From an uncultured virus (IMG/VR IMGVR_UViG_2654588052_000002) (lineage: Duplodnaviria; Heunggongvirae; Uroviricota; Caudoviricetes), in the IMG/VR virus record IMGVR_UViG_2654588052_000002, positions 51,772 through 71,771 of that record: DNA of 20,000 bases; one strand, 5' to 3'. The position numbers and the translations under genes were made by a program. Positions 1-19,990 of the stretch are shown here, piece after piece. A model generated the notes under the pieces. The model was not told the DNA's origin, made no database searches, and worked only from the letters and a program-made list of their open reading frames with translations. Position 1 is the stretch's first letter. Each line of letters starts with the position of its first letter.

Positions 1-362
1 TCTGTGATAGGGGTTTGCCAAATTTCTGTTCCAGGAATAAATTCCGGTTCTATTGTTTGGAATCGTTCTAGGGTACCATTTGTGTGGATTTTAAAAATTT
101 TCATTTGCGCACCAAAATGTTCTCTACCAAAGTGCTGTGTTAAGTAAAATGTATCACCAGTTATTAAATTCTTAATCTTCCAATCTGGTTGATATGTACT
201 TTCCTCTGAATTTTGTAAATCCACAATGGTTTTAAATCCCCAATCATCATTAAGTGGATCTGAGTAAGCTGCAGCTGCTTGTGAGGTAGGCTTACTCATT
301 TCTATTGCAGTAAAACCGCTAAAAGTTAACGCACCAATTAATGCTAATTTTCCTAACTTCAT
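1..362 (-). CDS. Secreted protein, DUF5065-like (3' end outside window); paralog of 558..1028
   Basis: Manual translation MKLGKLALIGALTFSGFTAIEMSKPTSQAAAAYSDPLNDDWGF...AQMKIFK...; GGGGG RBS upstream; signal peptide nearly identical to the next gene. Confidence 0.8.
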   Translation of the reverse strand, partial: MKLGKLALIGALTFSGFTAIEMSKPTSQAAAAYSDPLNDDWGFKTIVDLQNSEESTYQPDWKIKNLITGDTFYLTQHFGREHFGAQMKIFKIHTNGTLERFQTIEPEFIPGTEIWQTPIT

Positions 363-473
363 TATTGTTTCCCCCTATTAATTTTTGTAAGTTTTAAAAC
401 CAGAAATCATACACACATAATAATATAATCCACTGTATTATATTTCAAATATTTTCTAAAAAAATCCATAAAT

Positions 474-518
474 AAAAAGGCACCTTTGGGGTGCCTTCCT
501 GTGACTTGAACCACTTTA
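474..518 (-). repeat. Cassette-junction repeat copy 1 (short: terminator + core)
   Basis: aaaaaggcacctttggggtgccttcctgtgacttgaaccacttta. Confidence 0.9.
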
Positions 519-557
519 TCATTACAATAAAGATGGCGTTTACAAGGATAATTGTTA

Positions 558-1028
558 TTATTTATTAATTGTAAACCAATCACTTACGCCGTAACCTATT
601 GAATCATTGACATGTTTTATAACAGCAATATAGCTACCAGGAGTATATACATCTGTAATTACAGTTGACCAAGTAGGGTTTTGGTAATTAGCATCAAATT
701 GAGGATAAATTGTTCTATAGCGTACAGGTTTTTTTCCAGCTTCAACTTTAAAAATCTTCATAACAGCTCCTGAGTCATCTTTTATTGAGCTAAGAGAGTA
801 ATTTAAGATATCTCCAGTTCTATATGATTTTTTAACCATGTGTGCATTTGGAAATTTGGATAGATATTCAAAATTATTTGGTGATGAAAATCCCCAACTA
901 TCATTATATGGATCAGAATATGGTTCTTCATAAGCTGCTGCAGCTTGTGAAGTAGGTTTAATCATTTCTACTGCAGTAAATCCCCCAAATGTTAATACTC
1001 CAACTAATGCTAATTTTCCTAATTTCAT
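558..1028 (-). CDS. Secreted protein, DUF5065-like
   Basis: 156-aa ORF, signal peptide with AAAA cleavage region, GGGGG RBS; paralog of 1..362; family name from recall. Confidence 0.8.
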   Translation of the reverse strand: MKLGKLALVGVLTFGGFTAVEMIKPTSQAAAAYEEPYSDPYNDSWGFSSPNNFEYLSKFPNAHMVKKSYRTGDILNYSLSSIKDDSGAVMKIFKVEAGKKPVRYRTIYPQFDANYQNPTWSTVITDVYTPGSYIAVIKHVNDSIGYGVSDWFTINK

Positions 1029-1127
1029 TAAAAATCCCCCTAAATATTTTAATTTAAATAATTACAATATAATGATATACTATTATGTATATTTTTTCAA
1101 ATAATTTCTAAAAAAAGTTATAAATTC

Positions 1128-1217
1128 AAAAAAAATACACCTTAAGGTGCCTTCCTCCGACTTGAATCACTTTAATTCTAAGAATATGTATTGGACTCCC
1201 ATTCAAGTATTATTTTT
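1128..1217 (-). repeat. Cassette-junction repeat copy 2 (long)
   Basis: aaaatacaccttaaggtgccttcctccgacttgaatcactttaattctaagaatatgtattggactcccattcaagtattattttt. Confidence 0.9.
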
Positions 1218-1304
1218 CTCAATGAATAATTGGTATATTTTAGGGTGTTTTTTACTATTTTTATGTTAAGATATTTTGGTTGATATTCATCTTATTTTAG
1301 GAGG

Positions 1305-1610
1305 TTGGAAGATCTGTTACATGCTTTTCATATGGATTTTAGTTTCTATACCGAAAGTATAAAAGTTTTAGGGTTATTAGGGAATTCTACTCGCTTATCA
1401 ATTGTTTGTAAATTGATTACATATGGATCGTTGTCAGTTTCTGATTTAAGTAAGCAAACAAGAATTACAGAGGATTTGATTGTACAACATTTGCGTAAAT
1501 TAGCCTCTGGAAATATTGTAATTAGTGAACGTATAGGGAAAAGGCTTTATTTCAAAATAAAAGATAATAAAACAATTGAGATTATTAAGGTATTAGGATT
1601 AATAAGTTAA
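1305..1610 (+). CDS. ArsR/SmtB-family winged-HTH transcriptional regulator (start codon uncertain)
   Basis: LGNSTRLSIV...LSVSDLSKQ...QHLRKL...SERIGKRLYF matches the ArsR pattern. AGGAGG at 1299-1304 is too close to the TTG at 1305, so the true start may be 1314 (CTG) or 1332 (ATG). Confidence 0.8.
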   Translation: MEDLLHAFHMDFSFYTESIKVLGLLGNSTRLSIVCKLITYGSLSVSDLSKQTRITEDLIVQHLRKLASGNIVISERIGKRLYFKIKDNKTIEIIKVLGLIS

Positions 1611-1705
1611 TTTTAATTACTTTCAATATAAATGATTTTGCTATAACTCAATTGTGCAAAATTATATTTAGCCCGCCTATGGAAATAGGTAGGTTTTTAA
1701 TATAC

Positions 1706-1734
1706 AAAAAGGCGCCCATATAAGGGTGCCTTTT
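1706..1734. terminator. Hairpin related to the junction-repeat terminator, between convergent ArsR and YjcZ-like genes
   Basis: aaaaaggcgccc-atataa-gggtgcctttt, A and T runs on both sides. Confidence 0.7.
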
Positions 1735-1744
1735 CCAATAGTTT

Positions 1745-1855
1745 TTAGCAGAAACAACTGCATCCGATAATGATTAATAAAATAAACAATACAACTAATA
1801 AAGCGAAACCTCCAGCGAAACCGCAGCCTTCGCCACAACTACCACCATATCCCAT
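1745..1855 (-). CDS. YjcZ/SscA-family tiny sporulation membrane peptide (36 aa), missed by the ORF track
   Basis: GGAGG RBS then MGYGGSCGEGCGFAGGFALLVVLFILLIIIGCSCFC*; GFALLVVLFILLIIIG is the family signature. Confidence 0.9.
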   Translation of the reverse strand: MGYGGSCGEGCGFAGGFALLVVLFILLIIIGCSCFC

Positions 1856-1974
1856 AACAATAGTGCCTCCTTTAGATTAGAGGGTAAAACTAGGGTTCAT
1901 TCCATGGATTTTAATGGGTTCACTTTACCTTATGTTTTCAAGAATGAATTGAGAAGGTCCTTTTGAAAATAGAG

Positions 1975-1999
1975 AAAAGACGCCATAAGGCGCCTTCCT
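1975..1999 (-). repeat. Hairpin-only remnant of the junction repeat
   Basis: aaaagacgccataaggcgccttcct; stem change is compensatory relative to consensus. Confidence 0.7.
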
Positions 2000-2055
2000 T
2001 TTAGGTAGATAAGACTTTAGTTTTCCAATAAAAAAGCCGTTAATTTGAGAATTAT

Positions 2056-2616
2056 TTATTTTTGGATTATAAGAGTGCTCTCACATTTACGACAAGTAAT
2101 CTTCTCTTCCTCAAAAATGAATAGATTTTCAGCATCACATTCTGGGCATACAACTGCAAATGGTGTTTTTATATTTTTATAGCATAGGAAAGAAAAGAAT
2201 GCCATGATTAGAGCAGGTATAATAAGCATCATAATTAAGAATAGGCCCGCAAAAACGCCTGTAATTATGGAAAGTGGTTTCATTAGTTTTCTACCTACGG
2301 AGTTTACTTGATTATCCTTTTTACGAAAAGCAGTAACAAGGTAAGTTTGGGTTTCTTTTACTGGCCTAAATGCATTTACCGTATTGCCATCTTGTTCATC
2401 CATAGTGGGATAGGAAGTGTTTGGTCCTTGATATCCTCGTTGTATATAATAATTGTTTGACTCAGCTATTCGTGGTGTATACGAGATTCCAGTTCCAGGT
2501 ACATAAGTTGTTGTTCTTGATTCAGGTGAAATAGAGTTCCCTCCCATACCTGTGTATGTAAAGTTAATTTTCACACCCGGAGAAAACTGGATAATTCTAC
2601 GAAATTTATAACCCAT
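2056..2616 (-). CDS. DUF4236-like N-terminal domain + transmembrane hairpin + C-terminal zinc ribbon
   Basis: MGYKFRRIIQFSPGVKINF...PGTGISY; hydrophobic segment; CPEC...CRKC; GAGG RBS. Confidence 0.75.
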   Translation of the reverse strand: MGYKFRRIIQFSPGVKINFTYTGMGGNSISPESRTTTYVPGTGISYTPRIAESNNYYIQRGYQGPNTSYPTMDEQDGNTVNAFRPVKETQTYLVTAFRKKDNQVNSVGRKLMKPLSIITGVFAGLFLIMMLIIPALIMAFFSFLCYKNIKTPFAVVCPECDAENLFIFEEEKITCRKCESTLIIQK

Positions 2617-2766
2617 AATATTGTATCCTCTCCATCTAATTAATATAATTATTTACTAATTATAACATTTTTTAACTTAATATTAATATATTAAGTTAAA
2701 ACAGAATAATAAAAAAGAGTAATATTGAAGTTTACTAATTTAAGGCGTTTTAGAGTCCTTTTTTAT

Positions 2767-2868
2767 AAAAAAAAAGACACCCAAAGGTGCCTTCCGACTT
2801 GAACCACTTTAATTTTAATAATATGTATTGGACTCCCGTCCAAATATTATTTTACTACCTTAAGTAAT
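2767..2868 (-). repeat. Cassette-junction repeat copy 3 (long, 3-bp deletion in core)
   Basis: aaaaagacacccaaaggtgccttccgacttgaaccactttaattttaataatatgtattggactcccgtccaaatattattttactaccttaagtaat. Confidence 0.9.
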
Positions 2869-2881
2869 GTCAGTTGTTAAG

Positions 2882-2911
2882 AAAAAAAGGCACTCTTTCG
2901 AGTACCTTTTT
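2882..2911 (-). terminator. Intrinsic terminator of the DUF4352-like gene (GCACTC/GAGTGC family)
   Basis: aaaaaaaggcactc-tttc-gagtaccttttt directly after the stop; related hairpins at 9428-9449 and 9678-9701. Confidence 0.7.
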
Positions 2912-2912
2912 C

Positions 2913-3431
2913 CTATTCTACTTTTAAATTAATTTCTTTACCTGTCATACCGCCACTAGCTTTTAAGAAAAGTCCTTCAGCATCTTTTGGTATATCAAAT
3001 ACAATTTTCCCTGTCTGTGTTAGACCAGGATTTAATTGTTTTAAGAAGAAGTCAGTTTTTCCACCGTTAGCTAAGTCAAAAGATGATTGACCTTGTACAG
3101 AAGATGTGAATTCACGACCTTTGTTATCTACCAATTTAAAGCTGTTAGTATCAACAGTGATAGCGTCTTTTTGATTATTAGTAAGTGTAACTTCTAAAAT
3201 CTTAAAGACACCTTGTGCTTGTTCTTTTGAGTATTCATTACCCACAGAATCTACTGTTTCCATAGATCCTACAGAGATTTTCACATCAGAAGATACACCT
3301 TCTTTTGATACCGCTTTAGTGTCTGTTGAAGTTTGTTCTGTTGAATCTCCACCACCAGCAACCATAGCAATTATTCCGATTACAAATAAAGCTATAATGC
3401 CTAGGCATCCAAACTTAAATATTTTTCCCAC
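2913..3431 (-). CDS. Membrane-anchored DUF4352-like (Ig-fold) surface protein
   Basis: GTG start with GGAGG RBS; N-terminal TM; VTLTNNQKDAITVDTNSFKLVDNKGREF...LNPGLTQTGKIVFDIP pattern. Confidence 0.85.
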   Translation of the reverse strand: MGKIFKFGCLGIIALFVIGIIAMVAGGGDSTEQTSTDTKAVSKEGVSSDVKISVGSMETVDSVGNEYSKEQAQGVFKILEVTLTNNQKDAITVDTNSFKLVDNKGREFTSSVQGQSSFDLANGGKTDFFLKQLNPGLTQTGKIVFDIPKDAEGLFLKASGGMTGKEINLKVE

Positions 3432-3473
3432 GTTTGTTCCTCCAATTATGTAAAATGTAAGATTGCCACGTTA

Positions 3474-3517
3474 ATAATAACAAATTAAATATCTTTATAT
3501 TGTCATATTATGTCGAA
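3474..3517 (-). promoter_or_regulatory. Putative Spo0A-activated sigmaA promoter (unit A)
   Basis: + strand TGTCATA(3501-3507)-tta-TGTCGAA(3511-3517); on - strand ATGACA-21 bp-TATTAT with TG extension. Confidence 0.7.
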
Positions 3518-3594
3518 AGGAAATAAAAAGATAGTTTAGAAGTTTTAGACTATATTTCTGTCCTATAATTTATTTTTCCCATCTATCTCTTATT

Positions 3595-3694
3595 CATAAA
3601 GAAAAGACACCCTAAGGTGCCTTCCTCTGACTTGAACCATCTTAATTAAAATAATATGTATTGGACTCCCATCCAATTATTATTTTACCATGTT
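3595..3694 (-). repeat. Cassette-junction repeat copy 4 (long)
   Basis: cataaagaaaagacaccctaaggtgccttcctctgacttgaaccatcttaattaaaataatatgtattggactcccatccaattattattttaccatgtt. Confidence 0.9.
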
Positions 3695-3716
3695 TATTAT
3701 CTGTTTTATTAAATTA

Positions 3717-4352
3717 TTACTGGGCCTCTTGCTCACCTTTAGCTTTCATTTGTTTTTCATATACATATTTTGCTGTTGAAAAATCAGTAGGAAAATCACG
3801 TAGTGCCTTATTTATAATATTTAATTCTTCTTGCGACTTAATTTCAATGTTATTTAAATAGTCAAATGCTTTGGATTGTTTATTTGCAACATAATTTTGA
3901 GTAGAATAATCATCTGGGAAGTCTTTCTTAGCTTTTTCTTTAACCTTATTCATAGCTTCTGTTTTGTCGATGTTCTTTACTGGGTTCGCTAATGTTCCAG
4001 TAGTTTGTTCCGGTTTAGGTACTTCTTTCTTTTCCGGTTGAGACTCCGGCTTTACGTCTTCTTTTTTAGGCTGTTCTTGTTCTTGCGGTTTAGGTGTTTC
4101 TTGACTCGGCTGTGTAGTTTGTTGAAGTGACCTAGTTTGCTCTTTTTCATAGGAGTCTACTTTAGATTTCAACTCTTTGATTTGTGTTTTTAATTCTTGC
4201 TGTTCATTAAAGTGTTGATCGATAAGTTTATCCATATCTTTTTGTGAATACTTAGGTTTCATATCTTCTGATTTGGAATCTTTAAAAATAGCTACGGAAG
4301 CAATGATAGCTACTAGTACAGCGATAATTCCAATGATTAGTTTTTTGTTCAT
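3717..4352 (-). CDS. Membrane-anchored/secreted protein: coiled coil, Q/P/E linker and a duplicated C-terminal motif
   Basis: N-terminal TM, AGGAGG RBS; internal repeat DFPDDYSTQNYVANKQ / DFPTDFSTAKYVYEKQ. Confidence 0.8.
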   Translation of the reverse strand: MNKKLIIGIIAVLVAIIASVAIFKDSKSEDMKPKYSQKDMDKLIDQHFNEQQELKTQIKELKSKVDSYEKEQTRSLQQTTQPSQETPKPQEQEQPKKEDVKPESQPEKKEVPKPEQTTGTLANPVKNIDKTEAMNKVKEKAKKDFPDDYSTQNYVANKQSKAFDYLNNIEIKSQEELNIINKALRDFPTDFSTAKYVYEKQMKAKGEQEAQ

Positions 4353-4411
4353 TTATGTTCCTCCTAGAATACAATAATATTATTATATAACAATTAAATG
4401 ATTGTAGGTAG

Positions 4412-4462
4412 AAAAAAAGACACCCAAAGGTGCCTTCCTCCGACTTGAACCATCTTAATTTT
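4412..4462 (-). repeat. Cassette-junction repeat copy 5 (short)
   Basis: aaaaaaagacacccaaaggtgccttcctccgacttgaaccatcttaatttt. Confidence 0.9.
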
Positions 4463-4563
4463 GAAAAATGGCATTGAAGGAATTTCTTTATTTATAACTA
4501 TATTAGGGATGTTAATAATGGTATTTTATAGTGATATGAAAAAATTAATTATTAATGAATTTA

Positions 4564-4618
4564 AAATAAAAAGAAGACCGAACTAGAATAACAATCTAGT
4601 TCGGTCTTCTTTTTATTT
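4564..4618. terminator. Perfect 24-bp inverted repeat downstream of the LCI-like gene
   Basis: aaataaaaagaagaccgaactaga-N7-tctagttcggtcttctttttattt. Confidence 0.8.
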
Positions 4619-4647
4619 GTTTACTTGGAAAACTTAATTAAAGTTTC

Positions 4648-4941
4648 TTAATTATTACTTGTTCGCCATCCTTCATAATGGCCTGTCCATGAATTTTTAC
4701 TTACTTCAGTTGCTCCTTTTAAATACCAAGTCACTCCATCCCACTCTTTTACAGTAGGTATTTCCCCTTTTGATTTGTAACCAGGAAAGTCTTGTTTTTC
4801 TTTTTTCTTAACAAAACTTTTTTTATTATCAATCGTTTTTAATTTTACACCTGTATCAGTAGGTGTTTCCGCAAGTACTCCTCCAGCACCAGATAACATA
4901 ATTCCAGTTGCTAATGTTCCAATTATTACTTTCTTGAACAT
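4648..4941 (-). CDS. Secreted LCI-fold protein (putative antimicrobial peptide precursor)
   Basis: Sec signal peptide ending VLA; C-terminus DGVTWYLKG...WTGHYEGW resembles B. subtilis LCI (DGTKWIFKS...WVGIYEVW). Confidence 0.7.
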   Translation of the reverse strand: MFKKVIIGTLATGIMLSGAGGVLAETPTDTGVKLKTIDNKKSFVKKKEKQDFPGYKSKGEIPTVKEWDGVTWYLKGATEVSKNSWTGHYEGWRTSNN

Positions 4942-5237
4942 GAAAAATCCCCCTTTTTTGGAATGAATATTACATAAATAACAATACCATATTATTTGTA
5001 TTTTCTAACATTTGAATTTATTTATAAATATTTAATTGAATATTCAAACTATACAATTAAAATGAAAAGATTTAAAAATAATTAGTTCTATTAGTAGTGA
5101 ATCTCAAGTCAATGATTGGAAGAAAACTAAATTATTTATGGGGTAAGAAGTATAGAACTCAAACTTTTTTTTGAATTTATATTCAAAAGTTTACTTTCAA
5201 ATTAGAAAAGGCTAGTCCCTCGATACCCTTTTTGGAA

Positions 5238-5282
5238 ATAAAGAAAAGACACCCTAAGGCGCCTTCCTTCGACTTGAACCAC
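5238..5282 (-). repeat. Cassette-junction repeat copy 6 (short)
   Basis: ataaagaaaagacaccctaaggcgccttccttcgacttgaaccac. Confidence 0.9.
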
Positions 5283-5748
5283 CTCATATTAATGCAGTAT
5301 AAATTAATAAAATAATTTATATAAATATTTTGTTATACTTCCATGTCCCCTAGCTGATATAATGTATAAGGAAATTATTGGCTAATTAATAGTACATATA
5401 TATTTGGTGTACTGCCAATATCTTAACGAAAATACATACTAAGCAAGATTTGACATGAAAAAGCGTTGATTTTACTACTCTTAGCGATATCTCCAACAAA
5501 TGCACTTTAATGTAAAAGATGCGCCTTCTCCAGTAATTATGGATGATATTTTACTGATTTTTATAAAGATGAATTATAAGAGGTTTACACTCTTATTTAT
5601 AAGCATCTAATATTTTTGGATACACACACATTAGATAGATCTAAAAGGGCTGTTATAAACGAATATGAGAAGCCTTTTTAAAAGATATTTTCTGGTTTAA
5701 TATTTTTATTAGAAATGAAATGTTTGTTTTTTAAAGGGGGTAGCGATA

Positions 5749-8444: not shown

Positions 8445-8566
8445 CATAAAGAAAAGACACCCAAAGGTGCCTTTCTCCGACTTGAACCATCTTAATTTTA
8501 ATAATATGTATTGGACGCCAATCCAATTATTATTTTATCACGTTAAGTAATATTGTACATTGAGAA
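8445..8566 (-). repeat. Cassette-junction repeat copy 7 (long)
   Basis: cataaagaaaagacacccaaaggtgcctttctccgacttgaaccatcttaattttaataatatgtattggacgccaatccaattattattttatcacgttaagtaat...cattgagaa. Confidence 0.9.
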
Positions 8567-8593: not shown

Positions 8594-8622
8594 AAAAAGT
8601 CCTAGAGGGGCTAGGACTTTTT
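8594..8622. terminator. Bidirectional intrinsic terminator
   Basis: aaaaagtcctag-agggg-ctaggacttttt. Confidence 0.75.
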
Positions 8623-8716: not shown

Positions 8717-9376
8717 TTATTTTACTCCATCTCTTTCTAATGCTTCTTTTAGCATTCCTTCAGCTTCTTTTCTAATTTCTTCAGGTGTCATCTGGTCCAC
8801 TGGTTTATAATTACCGTTTTTATCGTAGTCGGCTGTGTTAGTTTTTGGCTCATTTGTAGATGGCGGAACAGATTTATTAGGGTTCTCGTGTGTTATAACT
8901 TGAGATGCAGGAGATCCCTCTGTTTTAGACCTGTTTTGCTTTGTTAACTCTTCTTCTAACTTTTTTACTTGATCATCAAGAGCTTTATTTTCTGTTTCTA
9001 ATGTTTTTATGTTTTTGTGAAGTACCTCATTTTCTTCAACGATTTGTTCATTAAAGTTTAGTCGGTTCATAGGTTCTTTTTCTGGTGATATACCTACTAT
9101 AATAATTGCCATTAACATTAGTAATCCTGAAAAAACGAAATGATCTTTTGCTGTTTTTTTTAATAAGAGTTTAATAAATCCTTTAATTAAATAATAAATC
9201 CCGATAATTATAGTGTAAGTGAACGTCATAAACATGGTATGGAAAATCGTTCTAGATGTGAGGCTTGGGAATTCTCCAATTGTTTCATAAAGCGCACCAT
9301 ATGTAACTATTAAAATTGCAGCATACATTATCGTCAACATTAAGACGACAATTAAAAATCTTTTAAATAGTGTCAA
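8717..9376 (-). CDS. Membrane protein: 3 TM helices + coiled coil + small C-terminal domain
   Basis: TTG start with AGGAGG RBS; hydrophobic N-terminal half; heptad region LHKNIKTLETENKALDDQVKKLEEEL. Confidence 0.8.
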   Translation of the reverse strand: MTLFKRFLIVVLMLTIMYAAILIVTYGALYETIGEFPSLTSRTIFHTMFMTFTYTIIIGIYYLIKGFIKLLLKKTAKDHFVFSGLLMLMAIIIVGISPEKEPMNRLNFNEQIVEENEVLHKNIKTLETENKALDDQVKKLEEELTKQNRSKTEGSPASQVITHENPNKSVPPSTNEPKTNTADYDKNGNYKPVDQMTPEEIRKEAEGMLKEALERDGVK

Positions 9377-9452
9377 AGCTATTCCTCCTGTAAATCTTAG
9401 ATGTATTAGATAATTTAATAAAAAAATAAAAGCACTCTTTTGAGTGCCTATT

Positions 9453-9584
9453 TTAAGCAGATACAGTAGCTTTACCTTTACGGAAGATACCCATTAATCC
9501 ACCAATCATTAAAGCTATAAACGCGCAAATAAGACCAAAAATACCACCAATAAGACCTAATACAAATTCAGTTGTTCGTTTCAT
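9453..9584 (-). pseudogene. Internally deleted DUF4064-like membrane protein (43 aa)
   Basis: MKRTTEFVLGLIGGIFGLICAFIALMIGG fused directly to LMGIFRKGKATVSA; N- and C-termini typical of ~115-aa B. cereus DUF4064 proteins as recalled, middle helices missing. Confidence 0.6.
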
Positions 9585-9626
9585 TATAATCTCTTTAATT
9601 ATGTAAAATGTAAGATTTCCGAGCTT

Positions 9627-9670
9627 ATCATAGCAAACAATCAATTCAAATATTGTCATATTATGTCGAA
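9627..9670 (-). promoter_or_regulatory. Putative Spo0A-activated sigmaA promoter (unit B)
   Basis: TGTCATA(9654-9660)-tta-TGTCGAA(9664-9670); - strand ATGACA-21 bp-TATGAT with TG extension. Confidence 0.7.
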
Positions 9671-9711
9671 TGGAAACAAAAAAGCACTCATAAGAGTGCT
9701 TATCCTTCAAT

Positions 9712-10410: not shown

Positions 10411-10472
10411 AATCGGGCCTCTTTTCAAATAATATAGATTTTGAGAATCACATAATGTAAGATTTCTGGATA

Positions 10473-10516
10473 ATCATATCAAAATAAACATCTGTATATT
10501 GTCATATCGTGTCGAA
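10473..10516 (-). promoter_or_regulatory. Putative Spo0A-activated sigmaA promoter (unit C)
   Basis: TGTCATA(10500-10506)-tcg-TGTCGAA(10510-10516); - strand ATGACA-21 bp-TATGAT with TG extension. Confidence 0.7.
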
Positions 10517-10548
10517 TGAAAATAAAAAAGAGAGCCGAAGCCCTCTTA

Positions 10549-11019: not shown

Positions 11020-11061
11020 GTATATCTCCTTTTTATAACAATTTATATTGATAATAAGATG

Positions 11062-11105
11062 ATAATAGCAAATTACACCTTCTTAATTTGTCATATTCTG
11101 TCGAA
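11062..11105 (-). promoter_or_regulatory. Putative Spo0A-activated sigmaA promoter (unit D)
   Basis: TGTCATA(11089-11095)-ttc-TGTCGAA(11099-11105); - strand ATGACA-21 bp-TATTAT with TG extension. Confidence 0.7.
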
Positions 11106-11112
11106 AGGTAAG

Positions 11113-11229
11113 AAAAAAGACACCCTAAGGTGCCTTCCTCCGACTTGAACCACTTTAATTTTAATAATATGTATTGGACGTCAATCTAAATATTATTTTA
11201 CCATGTTAAATTGTTTTGTTCATTGAGAA
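11113..11229 (-). repeat. Cassette-junction repeat copy 8 (long)
   Basis: aaaaaagacaccctaaggtgccttcctccgacttgaaccactttaattttaataatatgtattggacgtcaatctaaatattattttaccatgttaa...cattgagaa. Confidence 0.9.
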
Positions 11230-11656: not shown

Positions 11657-11712
11657 CATAAAGAAAAGACACCCAAAGGTGCCTTCCTCCGACTTGAATC
11701 ACTTTAATTTTA
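11657..11712 (-). repeat. Cassette-junction repeat copy 9 (short)
   Basis: cataaagaaaagacacccaaaggtgccttcctccgacttgaatcactttaatttta. Confidence 0.9.
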
Positions 11713-11826
11713 CTTTTACAATATTTCATCTGCTATTTGAAAAGAAGTTCCCCCTCTTAGTAAAAAAAGTATCACTTAATATACCTAAGGCATATAGTGA
11801 GTATGACTATATGGGAGGGGTTAAAT

Positions 11827-12204: not shown

Positions 12205-12270
12205 TAATGTTTTCTAAATTAGAAGTTATAACTTGTATTATTGAGCATAGATACTAATCTATGCTTTTTT

Positions 12271-12357
12271 CATAAAAAAAGACACCCTAAGGTGCCTTCC
12301 TCCGACTTGATCCACTTTAATTTTAATCATATGTATTGGACGCCAATCCACATATTA
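12271..12357 (-). repeat. Cassette-junction repeat copy 10 (long, abuts OLD stop codon)
   Basis: cataaaaaaagacaccctaaggtgccttcctccgacttgatccactttaattttaatcatatgtattggacgccaatccacatatta. Confidence 0.9.
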
Positions 12358-14064
12358 CTTCTCATTCCACCATTTTTGTATTTCTTTAATCAAAGGAAAA
12401 CGCTCAGCTTCTTCTTTAGACATTTTATTTGCGACTTCTTCCCCTACCTTGATTTTATTACGAATTCCAGGTACCTCATCAAAGTTTCCATAATCAAGGG
12501 TTTCAACTTCTTTACCTAAAACATCTGCCAAAATTTCCTTTGGATACATATTTTCTAATGTTCTATAGTCCTTAATCATTAAGAATTCAACATTATTTTC
12601 AATACATTCATCTTTATAATCTGATTTTACTTGTTTTATATTCCCGCCTTCAGCTTCGGATTTAGGTAGATCACTATCAATAATGACCATACTTTTTTCA
12701 TGCAACTTTTTTAAATCTTTTGCATCAATCTGAAAGAGATTTTCACCACCAAGAGGGATAATTAATATTCGTTCCCTTTCTATGTTTAAACCAACTTTAT
12801 CTAATAGTATGGTTAAGATGGTCACCTCAGTTTGTCCCTCAACAAATATTACACCTGTTGCAGAAAGAGCTAAAGGTAAATAAGCACCTAAAGTACTAAA
12901 AACAACATCTTTATTAGAGATATCAATTTCCTGACAATTTGTTTGTTGGCCATCATGCTTAATTAAATATAGTTTCTCTTTATCTTTTAAAGATTGTAAT
13001 ATAAAGGGAGAATGGGTTGCCAATACCCATTGTATTGAAAATTCACGAGAAATCTTTCTAATTAACTTAATAAATCTTTGCTGTAGCATTGGATGTAAAC
13101 CTATTTCAGGCTCGTCAATAAATACAATATTCATTTTGGAAAAATTATTTAGCACCTTGGCAACGAAAAACATAGTATTATAGATTCCATCACCACTTCG
13201 GGATAATGGTTGTTCTTTTTCATTTCCATTTTGGTTCCAAATTAAAAATATATCCTCAGATTTTTCATCTCCTTGAGTTCTATTTATTTCAACCCTTACT
13301 AATTCTGGAAGTAAAATTTTGAAATATTCCATGGATGTTTTATATTTTCCGGAAGTTTTCCCTCTTTCTGAACAAATCTCTTTGAAATAATTAACTAATT
13401 GTAATTTTTTATCCTCTTCTTTACTAAAAGCTTGTTCGTTACTTCTTGTAACACCTGGAACATATAAAGAATTCAGATTCTTCATAGAGTACTCAAATTC
13501 AGTTAAATATGTAATTATACGGTATAACATGTTTGGAAAATCAGTAATTTTATCATATCCAAAAAACTCTTGAACATGATTATTCCAAGATTTAAAATCA
13601 ACATAAGATTGAAATTCATCAAATATGCTTTGTCTAAGCGGGAGGCTTAGTAGTATTACTGCGTCTGAAAAAAACTGTTTAACCTTTTCTCTTTGAATAT
13701 CGATCCTTTGGTCATTTAAATCTTTTAATTCTTTTTCGAAATATTGATCTTCATCTACATACTTCCATAGTTTCTCTAAATCTTCTTTTGTACATTTAAG
13801 AGATAATCTGATACATTGTTGGGAGGTATCTTGAGAAAACCCTTTACGATGCGTACTTCCATCCAATAATTTAGATAGATCCTTATCCATTTCTGTACCG
13901 ACATTTATACAACTATTTAAACCTAAAAATGAGGCTAATAAAGCCGAAGTTTTCCCAGTATCATTAATTCCTGAGAGGACGGTAATGTTACTAATATCTA
14001 GCTTTAGTGGTGGATTACTTCCAATAGACCTAAAATTACTTATTTCAATACTATTTATATACAT
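12355..14064 (-). CDS. OLD-family ATP-dependent nuclease (ABC ATPase + TOPRIM), predicted anti-phage
   Basis: ISNFRSI, Walker A GINDTGKTS, signature SGDG, Walker B FIDEPEIGLHP, ATHSP, TOPRIM FVEGQTE and IIDSD, TLEN. Confidence 0.9.
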   Translation of the reverse strand: MYINSIEISNFRSIGSNPPLKLDISNITVLSGINDTGKTSALLASFLGLNSCINVGTEMDKDLSKLLDGSTHRKGFSQDTSQQCIRLSLKCTKEDLEKLWKYVDEDQYFEKELKDLNDQRIDIQREKVKQFFSDAVILLSLPLRQSIFDEFQSYVDFKSWNNHVQEFFGYDKITDFPNMLYRIITYLTEFEYSMKNLNSLYVPGVTRSNEQAFSKEEDKKLQLVNYFKEICSERGKTSGKYKTSMEYFKILLPELVRVEINRTQGDEKSEDIFLIWNQNGNEKEQPLSRSGDGIYNTMFFVAKVLNNFSKMNIVFIDEPEIGLHPMLQQRFIKLIRKISREFSIQWVLATHSPFILQSLKDKEKLYLIKHDGQQTNCQEIDISNKDVVFSTLGAYLPLALSATGVIFVEGQTEVTILTILLDKVGLNIERERILIIPLGGENLFQIDAKDLKKLHEKSMVIIDSDLPKSEAEGGNIKQVKSDYKDECIENNVEFLMIKDYRTLENMYPKEILADVLGKEVETLDYGNFDEVPGIRNKIKVGEEVANKMSKEEAERFPLIKEIQKWWNEK

Positions 14065-14263
14065 ATGAAAGCCTCCGATACAGTTTGAAATTTAAGTTTG
14101 AATAAAATAAAAAGTTTTTAAACATAAAATTATAATAGCATAAGTTTAGAATGTATCAGGGATATAGCTAGCTATATCTTCCCTTTTTATTACTCTCTAA
14201 TAAGGGATAACAACCTATTAATGTATTTTTAATCTTGTTGAGATACAAGTGTTTTGTCCAATG

Positions 14264-14365
14264 AAAAAAAGACACCCTCAGGTGCCTTCCTCCGACTTGA
14301 ACCACTTTACTTTTAATAATATGATTGGACGCCAATCTAATTATTATTTTACCACGTTAAGTAAT
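14264..14365 (-). repeat. Cassette-junction repeat copy 11 (long)
   Basis: aaaaaaagacaccctcaggtgccttcctccgacttgaaccactttacttttaataatatgattggacgccaatctaattattattttaccacgttaagtaat. Confidence 0.9.
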
Positions 14366-14429
14366 CTTTTTTCAAAAGGTTGGAAATTCAACCTGTTTTT
14401 TGATATATTTCGATTAAGGAGGCGTTGAG

Positions 14430-15779
14430 GTGTTACAACATTTTGAAGTTTATAAGTTACATGGAATTGAGGATAATAATATTTCCGTCAGGTTTAATAA
14501 TGATTTAACTTTATTAGTGGGAAAAAATGGTGCAGGGAAAACTACAACCCTTAATATTTTAAACATATTACTTTCTAAACAGTTTGAAAATTTATTTAGA
14601 TATAAATTTTCAAGGATAATTCTTACCACAGTAGAAGGTATCCTTATGATCAATAATAATGAGCGTCATTTAGATTTACAGTGGAATCCTACAAATAAGA
14701 AAAGTAGTTCTTCTGAACTTCAGATTAATAGAACAACATATTCTTATGGGTATAATAACAAACAAAGGATGACTTTTGAGTATGTTGGAAATCTAGATGA
14801 ATTTGCGAAATCCATAGATACAATGTATTTTCCTACCTATAGAAGGCTTGAAACAGATATATTTAATTTATTGTCTAATTCTATTAATAGTGATTCTGAG
14901 GATATCTCAGATTATTCAAGAAGGAAAGTAGATGAGGTATTTAACAATTTGTCTAGCTTCTCTTATGAAGCCAACAATAATATAGTTTTAGGTGTTTCTA
15001 ATAAAGAGATTAGTTCCATGATTAAGAATAAATGGGAAGAAGTCATAAAGTTTGAAAAGGAAAAGTTAAACCGTCTAGTGCGTAATTTTATGCTTTCCCT
15101 ATTAAGAACCCCTTCACCTAAAGATGCAATTCCATTAGAGGATCTACACAAAACATTTAATGCTAGTGAAGTTAGAGAGAAATTAAAGCAGTTTTTTACG
15201 ATGATAGGATATATAGATAAAGATAACCAAGTAGCGGTTTCATTAATAAATGAACACGTACAAAGGGTGGAGCAGGCTATAAACATGGATAGTGCAGGTT
15301 CAGAAATATCCCTAACCCAAGAGACTGTAGATGCTTTAATTTCTCATGATCAAATACATAGATTGTTAGAAATGTTTGAAGAAAGTCATGAAATTATAAC
15401 AGAGAAAAAAAAACCTTTTCGTGAATTAGTTAAAGATTTAAAGGAATTTATAGATGCGGATATCATTTTTGATGAGGGGCAGGGAGTACTCTCTTTTTCT
15501 AAAAATCATATTCAGCTAAATTCAGAAGATTTATCTTCTGGTGAAAAACAATTAGTTACTTTATTTGTATATACAAAATTATGCAACAAGGAAAACACTA
15601 TACTTTTAATTGATGAGCCAGAATTATCATTACATATTTCTTGGCAGAGAAAATTTTTAAAACATTTAATGAATAACAATAACAATGTTCAGTTTATTAT
15701 ATCATCTCACTCACCTTTTATAGTTTCTAATTATAAAGATAAGATAGAAGCATTAGCTCCAATGGGGGTTGAAGAGTAA
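14430..15779 (+). CDS. ariA: ABC-type (AAA_15/AAA_21) ATPase, PARIS AriA-like sensor
   Basis: GKNGAGKTT, YFPTYR, LSSGEKQ, LIDEPELSLHISWQ, SHSPFI; directly followed by a DUF4435-type TOPRIM gene. Confidence 0.8.
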   Translation: MLQHFEVYKLHGIEDNNISVRFNNDLTLLVGKNGAGKTTTLNILNILLSKQFENLFRYKFSRIILTTVEGILMINNNERHLDLQWNPTNKKSSSSELQINRTTYSYGYNNKQRMTFEYVGNLDEFAKSIDTMYFPTYRRLETDIFNLLSNSINSDSEDISDYSRRKVDEVFNNLSSFSYEANNNIVLGVSNKEISSMIKNKWEEVIKFEKEKLNRLVRNFMLSLLRTPSPKDAIPLEDLHKTFNASEVREKLKQFFTMIGYIDKDNQVAVSLINEHVQRVEQAINMDSAGSEISLTQETVDALISHDQIHRLLEMFEESHEIITEKKKPFRELVKDLKEFIDADIIFDEGQGVLSFSKNHIQLNSEDLSSGEKQLVTLFVYTKLCNKENTILLIDEPELSLHISWQRKFLKHLMNNNNNVQFIISSHSPFIVSNYKDKIEALAPMGVEE

Positions 15780-15780
15780 T

Positions 15781-16635
15781 ATGAATGAAGGTATCCCATT
15801 TTTGACAATTCAAGATAAAATGAATGCAGCTCTACTTGAGGGGAATGATATACCTTGTTTAATAGTAGAAGGTACAACGGATGTGCTTATCTATGAAAAA
15901 CTATTAGCTAATATAGAAATTGGAAGTGAACTTGATATTATAATTGGAGAGAGTAAATCTAATGTTAAGAAGTTTATTGAAGATGAGGGAGACGAGGTAT
16001 CTTTTCCATACTTAGCTATATTAGATTCCGATTATGAGCGTTATTTAGGTTGTTGTTTAAGTCATAACAATGTAGTTTATACTCATTCTTATACCATGGA
16101 GAACTATATAACTTCAAATGAAGTTATTGAAGAGGTTATTAGAAGTTTTACTACGCTAAAAACAAGAGGGATAACAGCTAATAAATTATTAGAGGATATT
16201 ATAAACTCTATAAAGCCCTTTATTTTTGCCTGTTTAGGAAAGCTAGAAAATGGGTGGGCTGTAAAGCTTGAAGATATAGGTTTAGAGACATGGGGTTATA
16301 GGAATGGTTTACAAGTAGATCAAGCGAAACTACTTAGTTATCTAAAAGAACAGTTAAAAGTTGATTTAGAGGATGAATTAAATAATTATGAAGTAACGCT
16401 TAATAAATTAATACAAACTGATCAATTGACTTTAGTATTAAGTGGAAAACGTATATATGATGCTTTATATTGGCGTTTTAAAAAAATATTCCCCAAATTT
16501 ATGGATGGGAAAAGTAAAAGGCTTTTTGAAAGAGAGTTATATTGCTATATACACTATGATTCCAAAGCACAAGAGTTAAGAAGTTATATAGAGAATCATT
16601 TTAAACAATATACGGCTGCTCTCACAATTCAATAA
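15781..16635 (+). CDS. ariB: DUF4435/TOPRIM nuclease, PARIS AriB-like effector
   Basis: LIVEGTTD, ILDSDY, YTHSYTMENY, SGK motifs; ATG 1 nt after the ariA stop (translational coupling). Confidence 0.8.
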   Translation: MNEGIPFLTIQDKMNAALLEGNDIPCLIVEGTTDVLIYEKLLANIEIGSELDIIIGESKSNVKKFIEDEGDEVSFPYLAILDSDYERYLGCCLSHNNVVYTHSYTMENYITSNEVIEEVIRSFTTLKTRGITANKLLEDIINSIKPFIFACLGKLENGWAVKLEDIGLETWGYRNGLQVDQAKLLSYLKEQLKVDLEDELNNYEVTLNKLIQTDQLTLVLSGKRIYDALYWRFKKIFPKFMDGKSKRLFERELYCYIHYDSKAQELRSYIENHFKQYTAALTIQ

Positions 16636-16773
16636 GCTAATGGTATTGATATAGATATATGTAAATTAGATAATAGCTAGTCTAATTTATAGTAAGATAT
16701 TTATAGAAAGGAGTTGTATTCGTACAGCTCTTTTTAGTATTTTTGTTTTATGTGTTCCTAAAATGAAAGCCAT

Positions 16774-16815
16774 AACGAAAAAGATCTGGCCTGTAAGGAT
16801 CAGATCTTTTTCGTT
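16774..16815. terminator. 15-bp perfect inverted repeat, likely bidirectional terminator
   Basis: aacgaaaaagatctg-N12-cagatctttttcgtt. Confidence 0.7.
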
Positions 16816-16940
16816 TACATGATAAAATACCTAATTAGTTCTAACAAAGTACTACCGGTAAGAATTGAAATGAATTTTTTTAAATCACATTCAAATTCAA
16901 TTTCTAATTTATCTTGTTTTCGTAAGTATTTTATTTTCAT
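16815..16940 (-). CDS. Small 41-aa ORF, hypothetical
   Basis: MKIKYLRKQDKLEIEFECDLKKFISILTGSTLLELIRYFIM*; AAGAAGG RBS; terminator immediately after the stop. Confidence 0.45.
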   Translation of the reverse strand: MKIKYLRKQDKLEIEFECDLKKFISILTGSTLLELIRYFIM

Positions 16941-17352
16941 GCATTAGGAAAACCTTCTTTCAACCGTATACTAATAAATTTTAACATTTAAAAAAATAGA
17001 ATACAAATTTGGGACTAGAAATTATACTTACTCTATGCATTTTTAATTGATTAATATAAATAGCTATAGAATATCTTTATTGTTTTGCAACATTTTCACG
17101 TACAATGATACTTACTTAGCAAAACGACCTTGTTGCCGTCCATAAAGCTCTTCATAAGTTTCTGTGGTTAATGTAAAACATGCATAAGAGTACTTCATAC
17201 AGAAAGATGCACTATTGCATATCCTTATCCGTAAGTGTGAGAAAGCATTGATATACAGCTATTTTCAAACTTTCTCAACATTTTTCTGATAACCACACGA
17301 CTGAATTTTGGCAAAAATATGATATTATGAAAATAATAAAATAAACGGACGT

Positions 17353-17542
17353 AAAAAAGACTCATGGCTGTGCAAGTAGTGCTGGTAACACTCTTCCACG
17401 GTCCGCCCTAATGTGCCTAGGGGAACACTTGTCATAAGTCTCGTACATAATTATAACACACATCCTAGATATAGTGACGCGTTTTCCTTAAATGTAAGAA
17501 ATCTAGGGTAACGTGTCTTTTTTGTCCAACAAGGAGGACAAA
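17353..17542. promoter_or_regulatory. Structured aimR leader with candidate antisense RNA and attenuator
   Basis: Stem gactcatggc/gtcataagtc (17359-17440); minus-strand TGtTATAAT at 17450-17458; terminator gacgcgtt...aacgtgtc-T6; competing cctagat/atctagg pairing. Confidence 0.5.
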
Positions 17543-17546
17543 GATT

Positions 17547-18695
17547 GTGCAAAGTTCAATAGTGAAGTTGCAAAATGATTTGTACGCTAAAGGAATAAGC
17601 GATAGAAATATTTCAAAACAAATCAGTTTAAGCAACGTGACGGTTTCTAAATTTTTTAAGGAGAAAGATGGAATTAGATTCGACAAGTACGGAGAACTTT
17701 TAAAAATCGCTTATCCTAATGATGTAGAGTTACGTCGAGATCTTTGCGCTAAATACTTTACTAATACTAAAAGACATCTTAATAAAAAAATTGCGATGAA
17801 TTATTTAATGGCTCATGGAGAGTTGGAACTTTTAAAACGACTAGTAGACCAAGAAATGACTTCAGCAAATAAAGAAAATCGCGAATGGGCAAGCTTGTAT
17901 GAACTGATTTATAAAAGATATAAAGGACACATAAAAGGCGAAAAATTACTTTTGGAATTAAATAAGAGAAAGAAATACCTCAAATTAAAAAGTAAAGAAT
18001 TAGAGATTTTATCCGAAGAAATAGAAATGCTATCAGCTTACGATCAAGGTAACTTTAAGTTAATGGTTAACAAATCCGATTTTTTAATGGAGAAACTAAA
18101 TGATATTAAAGATCCTTATCTAAAAGAATCGTTTTTTTATAAGATAAAGGAATGTGCAATTCATGGTCATTTAACCGCATACGAACTAGAAAAACTAAGA
18201 GAAATATGCGAAGAAGTGATACAAAGTATACCTATCAATAATCGTTTTCCTGTTGTAGAAGCAACAGTATATGGTGTATTGGGAGAATCGTTTATGCTAT
18301 GTGATGAATCCTTTGACAAATCGATATTTTATCTGAAAAAAGCATTGAGCATTTTAGAGAAAGAGTCGAGTAATCAAATGGAAATGAGAAGAACAATGAT
18401 AGCTAATACTATTGAGTTTCTAAAAATACATCATAAAGTTGATTTAGAAAATATTAAACCATTACATGCTGCTGAACAAGCATATTTAGAAATACAAAAG
18501 GGTAATAATGAACATGCAATTGAAATTTTAATGAAGTTGAAAGAAGAGAACGGGGAACTGAGCGCATTTCAAATTTACTATTTAGGCCTAGCGAAAAATG
18601 ACAAAGAACTGTTATTGAAATCACTAGATATGTTTGAGCGATTAGGGAATATTTTTTACGCTCAATTACCTAAGAAATCTCTAGGGATTATATAG
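17547..18695 (+). CDS. aimR: AimR-family arbitrium peptide receptor (HTH + TPR, RRNPP)
   Basis: 382 aa, N-terminal HTH (SDRNISKQISLSNVTVSKFF), NREWASLY and C-terminal GNIFYAQLPK motifs; GTG start with AAGGAGG; followed by a small signal-peptide gene. Confidence 0.9.
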   Translation: MQSSIVKLQNDLYAKGISDRNISKQISLSNVTVSKFFKEKDGIRFDKYGELLKIAYPNDVELRRDLCAKYFTNTKRHLNKKIAMNYLMAHGELELLKRLVDQEMTSANKENREWASLYELIYKRYKGHIKGEKLLLELNKRKKYLKLKSKELEILSEEIEMLSAYDQGNFKLMVNKSDFLMEKLNDIKDPYLKESFFYKIKECAIHGHLTAYELEKLREICEEVIQSIPINNRFPVVEATVYGVLGESFMLCDESFDKSIFYLKKALSILEKESSNQMEMRRTMIANTIEFLKIHHKVDLENIKPLHAAEQAYLEIQKGNNEHAIEILMKLKEENGELSAFQIYYLGLAKNDKELLLKSLDMFERLGNIFYAQLPKKSLGII

Positions 18696-18734
18696 AAAAA
18701 ATGTTATAATTTATGAGAGTGAGGTGATACATAA

Positions 18735-18890
18735 ATGAATAAGGTTTTATCGCTTATTACTATTTTAGCGTTGTCAGGTGGATTTTTATTCGCTCCTTCT
18801 GATAGCCAAAAAAAGCAACCTCAGCAGTTAGCTAAGGATACTCAACTTACAATTACATTAAAAATGTCTGATCCAGGGACGGGCGTTTAA
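18735..18890 (+). CDS. aimP: AimP arbitrium pro-peptide (51 aa), missed by the ORF track
   Basis: GAGGTG RBS, extended -10 TGtTATAAT at 18702-18710; MNKVLSLITILALSGGFLFAPS...KMSDPGTGV*; signal peptide with G/P-rich C-terminal mature peptide. Confidence 0.88.
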   Translation: MNKVLSLITILALSGGFLFAPSDSQKKQPQQLAKDTQLTITLKMSDPGTGV

Positions 18891-18904
18891 ATTATATATT
18901 TAAT

Positions 18905-18938
18905 GAATGACATCTTCTTTTTTTAGAAGATGTCATTC
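18905..18938 (+). terminator. Hairpin after aimP
   Basis: gaatgacatcttct-T6-agaagatgtcattc (14-bp perfect arms), weak U tract. Confidence 0.75.
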
Positions 18939-19035
18939 GTCGTTTTAGGGAATGTTAACTATTTTTCAAAAAAAATAAATAATTAACGAATGTGAATTGT
19001 TCACAAATTATATAGAGGATGCAGGGGGAATGAAC

Positions 19036-19143
19036 ATGGAGAATTTAGTTACAGAGTTATTGATAATGGAGACGGTCGAAGGGGTAAATATTGAACATCT
19101 CCGTGAAATGCTACTAGAATTATCAAACGAAGGAAAAGAGTAA
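19036..19143 (+). CDS. Small acidic ORF at the aimX position (35 aa), SinI-like candidate antirepressor
   Basis: AGGGGG RBS 7 nt upstream; MENLVTELLIMETVEGVNIEHLREMLLELSNEGKE*. Confidence 0.65.
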   Translation: MENLVTELLIMETVEGVNIEHLREMLLELSNEGKE

Positions 19144-19189
19144 AACAAAACTCCGTAGACAGTAATTAGTCTTACGGAGTTTTGTTTTT
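19142..19189. terminator. Bidirectional hairpin between aimX-position ORF and repressor, overlapping the repressor 3' end
   Basis: aaaacaaaactccgtagac-N8-gtcttacggagttttgtttt (one bulge). Confidence 0.75.
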
Positions 19190-19516
19190 AGATATAAAGC
19201 TTTGAATTGTTGATTTAAACAACTCTTTGTTGTCCTCTGATAGTTGATTAATCAGTGTCATCCATTCGTTAGTTTCTTTACTTATCTCTTCTGTTTCTTT
19301 AACTGTTAACTTTTGATGCATCGCTCTTCCTAATAAGTAATCAATAGAAACTTCGTATATGTCTGCTAGTTTAGTTAATGTTTCGTAGTCAGGTTTACGT
19401 CTTCCTGATTCGTAACTAGATAAAGTGGCTTTGTTTACGTCTAATTTTTCTGAGATGAAAGTCTGTGTGTACCCCTTCTTTTCGCGGCACGCTTTCAATC
19501 TTTCGTTTAAGTTCAT
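19172..19516 (-). CDS. Xre/HTH_3 phage repressor (ImmR/SinR-like, no peptidase domain)
   Basis: RLKACREKKGYTQ...ATLSSYESGRRKPDYETLTKLADIYEVSIDYLLGR; divergent from the cro-like gene. Confidence 0.9.
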   Translation of the reverse strand: MNLNERLKACREKKGYTQTFISEKLDVNKATLSSYESGRRKPDYETLTKLADIYEVSIDYLLGRAMHQKLTVKETEEISKETNEWMTLINQLSEDNKELFKSTIQSFISKNKTP

Positions 19517-19590
19517 AATTTTATTATTCCCCTTTATAAATAAGATCCCATTGCGAAGTATTATTCTTTAATTACAGTATATATACTTTT

Positions 19591-19702
19591 TGACAACTTT
19601 TCACTATTTGTAAAAAAAATTAAAACAAAGTGACAAAACAGGGGTTTACATTTACGAAATGACAACTTATAATGAAATTAAGTTGTTGTCGAAATGACAA
19701 CT
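19591..19702 (+). promoter_or_regulatory. Rightward lytic promoter and repressor operators
   Basis: TTTACA(19645-19650)-17 bp-TATAAT(19668-19673); TGACAACT half-sites at 19591, 19660, 19695; palindrome GTTGTC-N5-GACAAC at 19685-19701, repeated at 19922-19938. Confidence 0.8.
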
Positions 19703-19720
19703 ATAGGAGGTGAGGCGGAT

Positions 19721-19990
19721 ATGACATTTGGAAACAGAGTTAGAGATATTCGCAAACAAAAAGATATAACACAATCAAAACTGGCTAAGAGTCTTGGTTT
19801 TAGTCACGCTTCAGCTATTTCTTTCATAGAAAATGGCAAGAGAAGATTAGATGCTGAAAAGATACCTATTTTAGCAAATGCACTTGGAGTATCAATAGAT
19901 GAACTTTTTTTTACTCAAAAAGTTGTCATAATGACAACTGGAAGGCCGGAGGAGAAAGAAAATGAATCAATTACAGGTTTTCAACAATGA
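19721..19990 (+). CDS. Cro-like Xre HTH regulator
   Basis: ATG at 19721 after AGGAGGTG RBS; MTFGNRVRDIRKQKDITQSKLAKSLG...AISFIENGKR. Confidence 0.85.
   Translation: MTFGNRVRDIRKQKDITQSKLAKSLGFSHASAISFIENGKRRLDAEKIPILANALGVSIDELFFTQKVVIMTTGRPEEKENESITGFQQ

Follow-up and report, generated by a model that had tools for sequence, protein, structure and literature searches.

What is the repeat of about 120 bases that recurs among the accessory genes of a phage-plasmid, and does its copy at 8445–8566 on the minus strand represent a gene for a small RNA, as was predicted from the sequence? The window, that is, the whole stretch of 20,000 nucleotides analyzed here, is the final 20 kb of a circular phage-plasmid of 71,771 bp, and the repeat is 100% identical to that of Bacillus thuringiensis HD521 plasmid pBTHD521-3, which is of equal length. 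Accessory genes are followed in the window by the AimR receptor and two XRE regulators, and the cargo includes lipoproteins, an OLD-like ATPase, and an AriA/AriB-like pair.

Copies of the repeat in the window

A total of 14 copies were identified on pBTHD521-3, all co-oriented, 12 in the window and two upstream. The original prediction of a multicopy minus-strand repeat was borne out, since all 12 window copies lie on the minus strand and seven of them are long. Besides the copy at 8445–8566, long copies include copy 4 (2762–2883, with a 3-nt deletion in the purine run and an upstream terminator of its own), copy 5 (3595–3716, adjoining the stop of the gene at 3717–4352), copy 9 (11108–11229), and copy 12 (14260–14381). 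The RNA part is present without the promoter half in copy 2 (1125–1210), and in copy 11 (12270–12357) it is fused to the stop codon of the OLD-like ATPase gene (12355–14064). Short copies are copy 1 (470–530, core and terminator), copy 6 (4408–4470), copy 7 (5237–5300, the crossover point relative to a sister phage-plasmid), and copy 10 (11657–11720). Copy 3 (1961–2000) is a remnant consisting of the terminator only, and the compensatory change noted there at 1975 was confirmed as double-sided.

Other features of the window were also recorded. The AriA/AriB-like (PARIS-type) gene pair is located at 14430–16635, and the OLD-like gene at 12355–14064 encodes an ATPase-TOPRIM protein. A second repeat family (3444–3529, 9597–9682, 10443–10528, and 11032–11117) lies 5' of minus-strand cargo genes and reads as a shared promoter; it contains what we take to be a Spo0A-box-like motif. 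A third repeat (2875–2911, 9417–9453, and 9669–9703) is a shared terminator, with a stem like that of the gene-linked leaders described below. Unlike four single-copy phages, the window has no XRE gene divergent from aimR (16635–17547), and a strong terminator-like hairpin is present at 16774–16845.

Anatomy of the copy at 8445–8566

On the minus strand, this copy starts with a promoter half (8532–8566) with a conserved 5' edge near 8566, including a weak -35 element (8559–8554) and an extended -10 element (8540–8532), the latter being confirmed in all four copies for which it had been claimed (3627, 8477, 11140, and 14292). The predicted transcription start is 8525, 7 nt past the -10 hexamer, as deduced from the pXO1 copy by alignment to NC_007322.2:459. 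Then follow a 5' hairpin of six pairs with a 4-nt loop (8511–8526, from the fold), an AU-rich linker that differs in length between lineages (8490–8510), a single-stranded core (8474–8489), and an intrinsic terminator with an 8-pair stem and a U tract (8448–8473). Within the core, the best-conserved part is 7 nt long (8485–8479), and a purine run (8478–8474) lengthens the terminator stem. The predicted RNA extends from 8525 to approximately 8448, or 78 nt. The stretch 8485–8479 resembles a tRNA T-loop; a cloverleaf is, however, absent, and no tRNA was found in the window by ARAGORN. Between the upstream gene (8717–9376) and the promoter of this copy lies a separate terminator-like hairpin (8598–8612, strand unspecified).

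Folding of the minus strand of 8445–8526 gave the 5' hairpin and the terminator (z -2.16; 4 of 200 shuffles as good), whereas the plus-strand fold was poor (z -0.98). The site 8559–8532 was listed in a promoter scan, and promoter-like matches around it were no more common than in shuffled sequences (2 versus a mean of 3.1). Judging from these elements, the copy would itself be transcribed, with the RNA ending at the U tract. The Rfam search suggested with the original prediction named no family, no copy and no gene-linked leader matching at or near the gathering score. Two other candidates were rejected: a small peptide, for which two frames stay open across many copies, though by eye with no ribosome site, variable starts, and frequent frameshifting indels, and a palindromic operator at the start site, which was indistinguishable from ordinary transitions.

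Evidence for transcription

Plasmid pXO1 carries one copy of the element, at 439–542, with 74% identity. In the published Cappable-seq table (PMC8407390), a start is listed at NC_007322.2:459(+) in the wild type (log2CPM 3.5, FDR 8e-9) and also in the atxA mutant. This start is on the same strand as the copy, 7 nt past its -10 hexamer, and aligns to window position 8525. Plus-strand starts in the same table number 35 in the first 36.7 kb by our own count, or about one per 1,050 nt, so that the chance of a match within five bases is about 0.5%. A start had been predicted about 6 nt after TAAAAT, and the published start falls, at 7 nt, on the predicted base of this single, diverged copy. In the available part of that report, start 459 is filed as belonging to a 139-nt 5' UTR of the next gene and no RNA is called there.

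The promoter is well kept. Among 111 full-length, related copies, the three key bases of the -10 element were changed in 1 of 333 instances, compared with 183 of 1,437 at the flanking positions. Of 152 promoter-half matches, 144 continue into the core, and the rest consist of five with a deleted or diverged core, one weak match, one decayed copy, and one filled with cargo (L140). For 38 of 87 long copies located behind a co-oriented upstream gene, a separate terminator intervenes.

RNA reads were taken from four raw runs, which are from other strains. All 152 reads on a copy extend past the element, and in the two runs that proved stranded about nine-tenths of the depth is antisense. This antisense depth is read-through from a convergent neighbor, although no matching flank was found for its source locus. 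No discrete short RNA was seen among the 152 reads, but libraries of 150-nt reads are expected to lose an 80-nt RNA, and thus these reads neither show nor exclude it. The proposal of an approximately 80-nt minus-strand transcription unit is accordingly sustained by the start site, the conservation of the -10 element, the linkage of promoter and core, and the covariation among distant homologues (see below), but not by a discrete RNA among these reads. We conclude that the element is likely a short transcription unit yielding an RNA of 78 bases.

Conservation among close copies

From 198 loci, 380 terminator-anchored sites were obtained, of which 278 with the core were kept, the primary matches having been selected for the core; taking one per flank combination gave 157 long copies. 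The stems had been described as mostly kept, with recurrent mismatches that are G-U on the minus strand. For the terminator both statements hold, as its wobble position is paired in every one of the 157 long copies, 152 of which have G-U there on the minus strand. For the 5' hairpin neither does: a pair is broken in four of the seven long window copies, no double-sided change was found among the 157 long copies, and the most common breaks, at three pairs (27/155, 8/156, and 7/156), would pair on the plus strand and not on the minus strand.

The purine run, earlier read as Shine–Dalgarno-like, is one of the core's more variable segments, and variation is lowest at 8485–8479. When sites were anchored on the promoter half instead of the terminator, the core as a whole did not surpass the linker in conservation (p 0.12 and 0.63). 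The 7-nt stretch changed in 23 of 420 positions versus 136 of 1,192 for the linker, and in 5 of 231 versus 40 of 676 in a second comparison (p 0.0003 and 0.02, for a stretch picked after the data had been seen). In some lineages the core is preceded by other promoters, sigma-A-like at 11 sites and sigma-B-like at 15 sites; the latter, which we take to be a sigma-B-like promoter about 43 nt before the terminator, replaces the usual promoter and hairpin and represents one flank type (L187, L139, and L222). A diverged paralogue, with promoter and terminator kept and the core changed, was observed in L015 (10312–10427) and L021 (7912–8027).

Range of the repeat

By BLAST, the repeat was detected at 1,649 places in 446 plasmid records, 444 of which are named Bacillus, and in 15 phage records. 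Pattern scans added 87 viral loci and 105 genome loci, the latter all titled as B. cereus-group species except for one record named Paenibacillus. Within the B. cereus-group genus, 62 of 71 genomes gave a match, some genomes being without close copies; in an order-wide sample, 4 of 151 genomes matched, all within this genus. In all four single-copy phages examined, the copy has the aimR region on one side and the replication region on the other. Chromosomal close copies have no single conserved home, their neighbors being varied in the 20 + 20 stretches inspected. No description of the element was found in the literature searched, the coverage of which excluded subscription journals and bioRxiv supplements.

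Distant homologues as leaders of a small gene

When 105 genomes of the family were searched with a profile, four weak matches turned up outside the genus, all in the genome G075. With a structured RNA model, eight strong matches were obtained in three of nine genomes of the genus to which G075 belongs, and all eight are located 31 nt upstream of a small gene of 48–52 residues (one copy is truncated and two are cut by contig ends). This small gene is present in 68 of 104 family genomes and in 65 of 70 scored genomes of the B. cereus-group genus. The 52-residue protein belongs to no Pfam or NCBIfam family, its Atlas neighbors are all unnamed, and identical or close proteins carry the annotation "hypothetical" both in Ectobacillus and in the B. 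cereus group. Among 40 further gene copies in the B. cereus-group genus, 11 have a clear leader match, two a partial match, five a tRNA, and 22 none. In front of the conserved chromosomal gene lies a degenerate leader, which can be aligned by eye but scores weakly (E 0.09–0.65).

In an alignment of 22 sequences not fitted to the model, six of 14 pairs showed double-sided changes, as high a count being reached in 2 of 500 shuffles, and in a model-fitted alignment of 42 sequences 13 of 14 pairs did so; relatedness inflates both counts. Covariation, which the original prediction had named among its tests, is thus present in both helices across distant lineages, but absent from the 5' hairpin of the 157 close copies. 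The small gene follows none of 273 close copies and is absent from pBTHD521-3. The linkage of leader and gene, the covariation, and the gene-less close copies together indicate that the motif is a real structured leader, of which the close copies are the gene-less form. We infer that the leader form is ancestral and that the gene was lost later. In a tree of 53 proteins the deep forks are unsettled and no direction is given.

Several observations concern the gene itself. In the B. cereus group, the chromosomal 52-residue gene that has the degenerate leader (L261–L269 and L305–L329; e.g., G001:C1:2323423–2323563) encodes a protein with a basic N-terminus, and many paralogues are found on other contigs, some behind genes resembling YolD or ImmA-type genes. 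Pairing of the core with the ribosome site of the small gene was considered and rejected as modest and not type-specific: the core pairs with the start region of the gene in some leaders, shuffled cores being equal in 6–222 of 300 trials, and the cores of close copies pair weakly with it, mostly at -4 to -6 kcal/mol.

The five tRNA-bearing gene copies (L346, L347, L348, L352, and L366) carry a complete CAT-anticodon tRNA, preceded by an element-like promoter and followed by the 52-residue gene; four of them also have a homologous terminator, which L366 lacks. ARAGORN names this tRNA as tRNA-Met; we take it to resemble the isoleucine-accepting type. Such loci raise the alternative that the element is a tRNA gene in decay, of which the promoter, a relic of the T-loop, and the terminator are left; such an origin would be compatible with a role at junctions. 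By eye, the core indeed matches the T-loop region of the CAT tRNA at 9 of 10 bases. The core, however, has no T-stem, it is not T-loop-like in two genomes of the genus of G075, and ARAGORN gave no match in the window. Furthermore, the tRNA-bearing loci form one clade in the protein tree (support 100/99), whereas leaders without a tRNA are spread over three groups, and therefore a single gain of the tRNA is more economical, even with the deep forks as they stand. We regard descent from a tRNA gene as distinctly unlikely.

Exchange of cargo at the repeat

At the 278 sites, 157 types of upstream flank and 141 types of downstream flank occur, paired in 250 different combinations. Of 321 ends of homology blocks, 155 fall at copies, which make up 8.6% of the array, a count that is inflated because homology alone draws block ends to repeats. 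A sister phage-plasmid, L052, is 99.8% identical over window positions 1–5282 and 99.7% over 17173–20000, and different in between; the left switch is located at the core of copy 7 and the right switch away from any copy. At the copy edges, the 3' side is sharp, whereas the 5' side is ragged, falling anywhere between 10 and 100 nt before the terminator.

The element had also been proposed to double as an insertion target in the way that tRNA genes do. Exchange of cargo at the repeat is supported, but in the form of crossover inside the shared sequence and not of insertion at a fixed, tRNA-like site. A target for site-specific recombination or insertion, comparable to integron or tRNA sites, or an expression cassette that is empty at first and takes up genes between its promoter and terminator, would account for the common orientation of all 14 copies and for L140 (1739–2500), the sole case among 152 promoter-half matches with cargo, about 700 bp, between the promoter half and the core. 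That same count of one filled site in 152 led us to reject the empty cassette, and the spread of the 5' boundaries argues against site specificity. Among the matches listed from 273 sites there was no clean empty site (at least three shorter cases were seen), and no integrase is encoded among the 21 window proteins. Altogether, a site of this kind is very unlikely. A serine-recombinase-like ORF was read elsewhere on the plasmid, outside the window. At six loci (L103, L015, L224, L226, L232, and L249), terminal repeats that we take to be Tn3-family-like abut the element on either side, and these look like independent insertions.

Several copies start within a few bases of the stop codon of a cargo gene, and such copies would act as cargo terminators. 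Downstream of long copies, the neighboring gene is co-oriented in 67 of 119 cases and convergent in 51. The most common downstream flank (33 of 278 sites, and window 1700–1960) is a promoter-like stretch in front of a gene for a YjcZ-family sporulation peptide; this flank and the next (10 sites) look like separate promoters. These numbers bear on the idea that the copies are still attenuators acting in cis, at which a factor permits read-through into the downstream cargo gene. The layout is that of the gene-linked homologues, more than half of the long copies have a co-oriented gene to read into, and the pXO1 start has been assigned to the next gene. Nevertheless, 51 long copies face a convergent gene, separate promoters seem to serve the commonest flanks, and no antiterminator fold is evident, so that attenuation at the present copies seems unlikely to us.

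Search for a function in trans

The original prediction offered a decoy, an antitoxin, or a regulator as the role of the RNA. Among 120 start regions on the plasmid no target was found, the best pairing outside the copies being -23.9 kcal/mol against a shuffled median of -23.3. Three conserved host matches were rejected as targets, as they are same-sense and within coding regions, two of them being merely AT-rich. A type I antitoxin was also rejected, there being no fixed toxin: 124 downstream flank types carry unrelated genes, 46 of them with a convergent ORF, and few of these ORFs are both short and hydrophobic. Hydrophobic ORFs of 27–35 residues, ending 145–180 nt past the copies on the opposite strand, were nonetheless observed in L050, L057, L090, L011, L041, and L145, and could encode type I toxin-like peptides. 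With no target, no consistent opposite toxin, and no discrete RNA among the 152 reads (from libraries unsuited to it), these suggested roles in trans are conjectural.

A selected RNA acting in trans, which would titrate a factor that reads the leader or pair with a target through its 7-nt core, stays a live rival because the promoter has not decayed. The conserved -10 element and the published start speak for it, as do the joint travel of promoter and RNA as one unit, the replacement of the promoter by others in front of the same core, and the better conservation of the 7-nt core than of the linker. The constant slot between aimR and replication in the four phages, and the presence of the small gene in nearly all scored genomes of the B. 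cereus-group genus, point in the same direction. On the other hand, the 5' hairpin does not covary among close copies, the plasmid offers no target and the best host matches checked lie in the same sense inside coding regions, the core pairs weakly with the start of the small gene, and copy number and position vary freely, down to genomes without close copies. Weighing these points, we consider a trans-acting RNA possible, though well short of probable. A bolder form, in which a host leader RNA stripped of its gene is mass-produced by B. cereus-group plasmids and phages, pXO1 among them, both as a decoy for the factor of the 52-residue gene and as a recombination joint, is rather improbable.

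A probable orphaned leader unit

The reading we prefer, with a probability of roughly 55%, is that the element is an orphaned leader unit, composed of a promoter, a 78-nt RNA, and a terminator, that serves as a terminator and a swap point. The unit probably started out in front of a small Bacillus gene, as its 5' leader, and subsequently lost that gene. It then likely spread by ending cargo transcripts and by offering neighboring cargo modules a shared sequence for recombination. The exchange of cargo would be ordinary homologous recombination between direct repeats; segments excised and reinserted between such repeats would leave every copy in the same orientation. The short RNA would be a by-product or a secondary use. 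Against this reading, 22 of the 40 further gene copies are leaderless, the chromosomal leader matches weakly, and the start is a single one in a single, diverged copy. In addition, the promoter of a mere by-product should decay, yet the -10 element is kept and alternative promoters occur, which fits selection for the RNA.

Through this analysis, a nameless repeat that is very common in plasmids, phages, and islands of the B. cereus group is connected to a structured leader RNA found in no catalogue and to a small, as yet unstudied gene. The analysis also explains the swapping of defense and surface cargo in these elements. Should the RNA be merely a by-product, a useful annotation and a shuffling mechanism like that of PeSL cassettes would still be gained.

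Comparison with known systems

Leader attenuators and small RNAs derived from 5' UTRs in Firmicutes involve a promoter, a short structured leader, a terminator, and a gene, and early termination frees a small RNA. The element differs in that its close copies are multicopy and have lost the gene, and in that it belongs to no Rfam family; we know of no ligand, protein, or antiterminator for it. The tRNA-Other of B. cereus is reported (PMC3399842) to be a tRNA-related, non-translating RNA located beside horizontally acquired DNA. It is a single predicted pseudo-tRNA, whereas the element has no cloverleaf and at most a T-loop-like stretch.

The bcr1–bcr18 repeats are interspersed sequences of 100–400 bp in the B. 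cereus group, some of which are transcribed and structured; in the portions available of the reports on them, bcr2 and bcr3 are given as chromosomal only and bcr18 as plasmid-borne, on pXO1-like plasmids, and located in 5' UTRs (PMC6542083, PMC3446304, PMC6199540, PMC3184786). According to the counts given in PMC6542083, HD521 has no bcr18 and at most four of bcr4–bcr17, and B. anthracis has three bcr18, compared with 14 copies of the element on one HD521 plasmid and one on pXO1; bcr4–bcr18 are thus excluded by these published copy counts, that is, set apart by number and not by sequence.

The small RNAs XrrA–XrrD of pXO1 are, as far as the available text describes them, also stand-alone promoter-to-terminator units on a B. 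cereus-group plasmid, XrrC and XrrD being 95 and 87 nt long (PMC7843513, PMC8407390). Identity with the element was rejected, as they are located at 105–142 kb of pXO1 (PMC7843513, PMC8407390) and the only copy of the element there is at 439–542; moreover, its start is not AtxA-dependent in the published table (PMC8407390).

The PeSL cassettes of T4-type phages, as presented in the available part of PMC2839356, resemble the element in that both are repeated modules of promoter and stem-loop in accessory regions, and in both the gene content is shuffled by recombination between copies. In PeSL, the stem-loop is located before or within the promoter, which drives the next gene via a Shine–Dalgarno sequence (PMC2839356). 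In the element, by contrast, close copies drive no gene, and a terminator follows about 80 nt past the promoter (144 of 152 promoter-half matches), so that the promoter would yield a short RNA.
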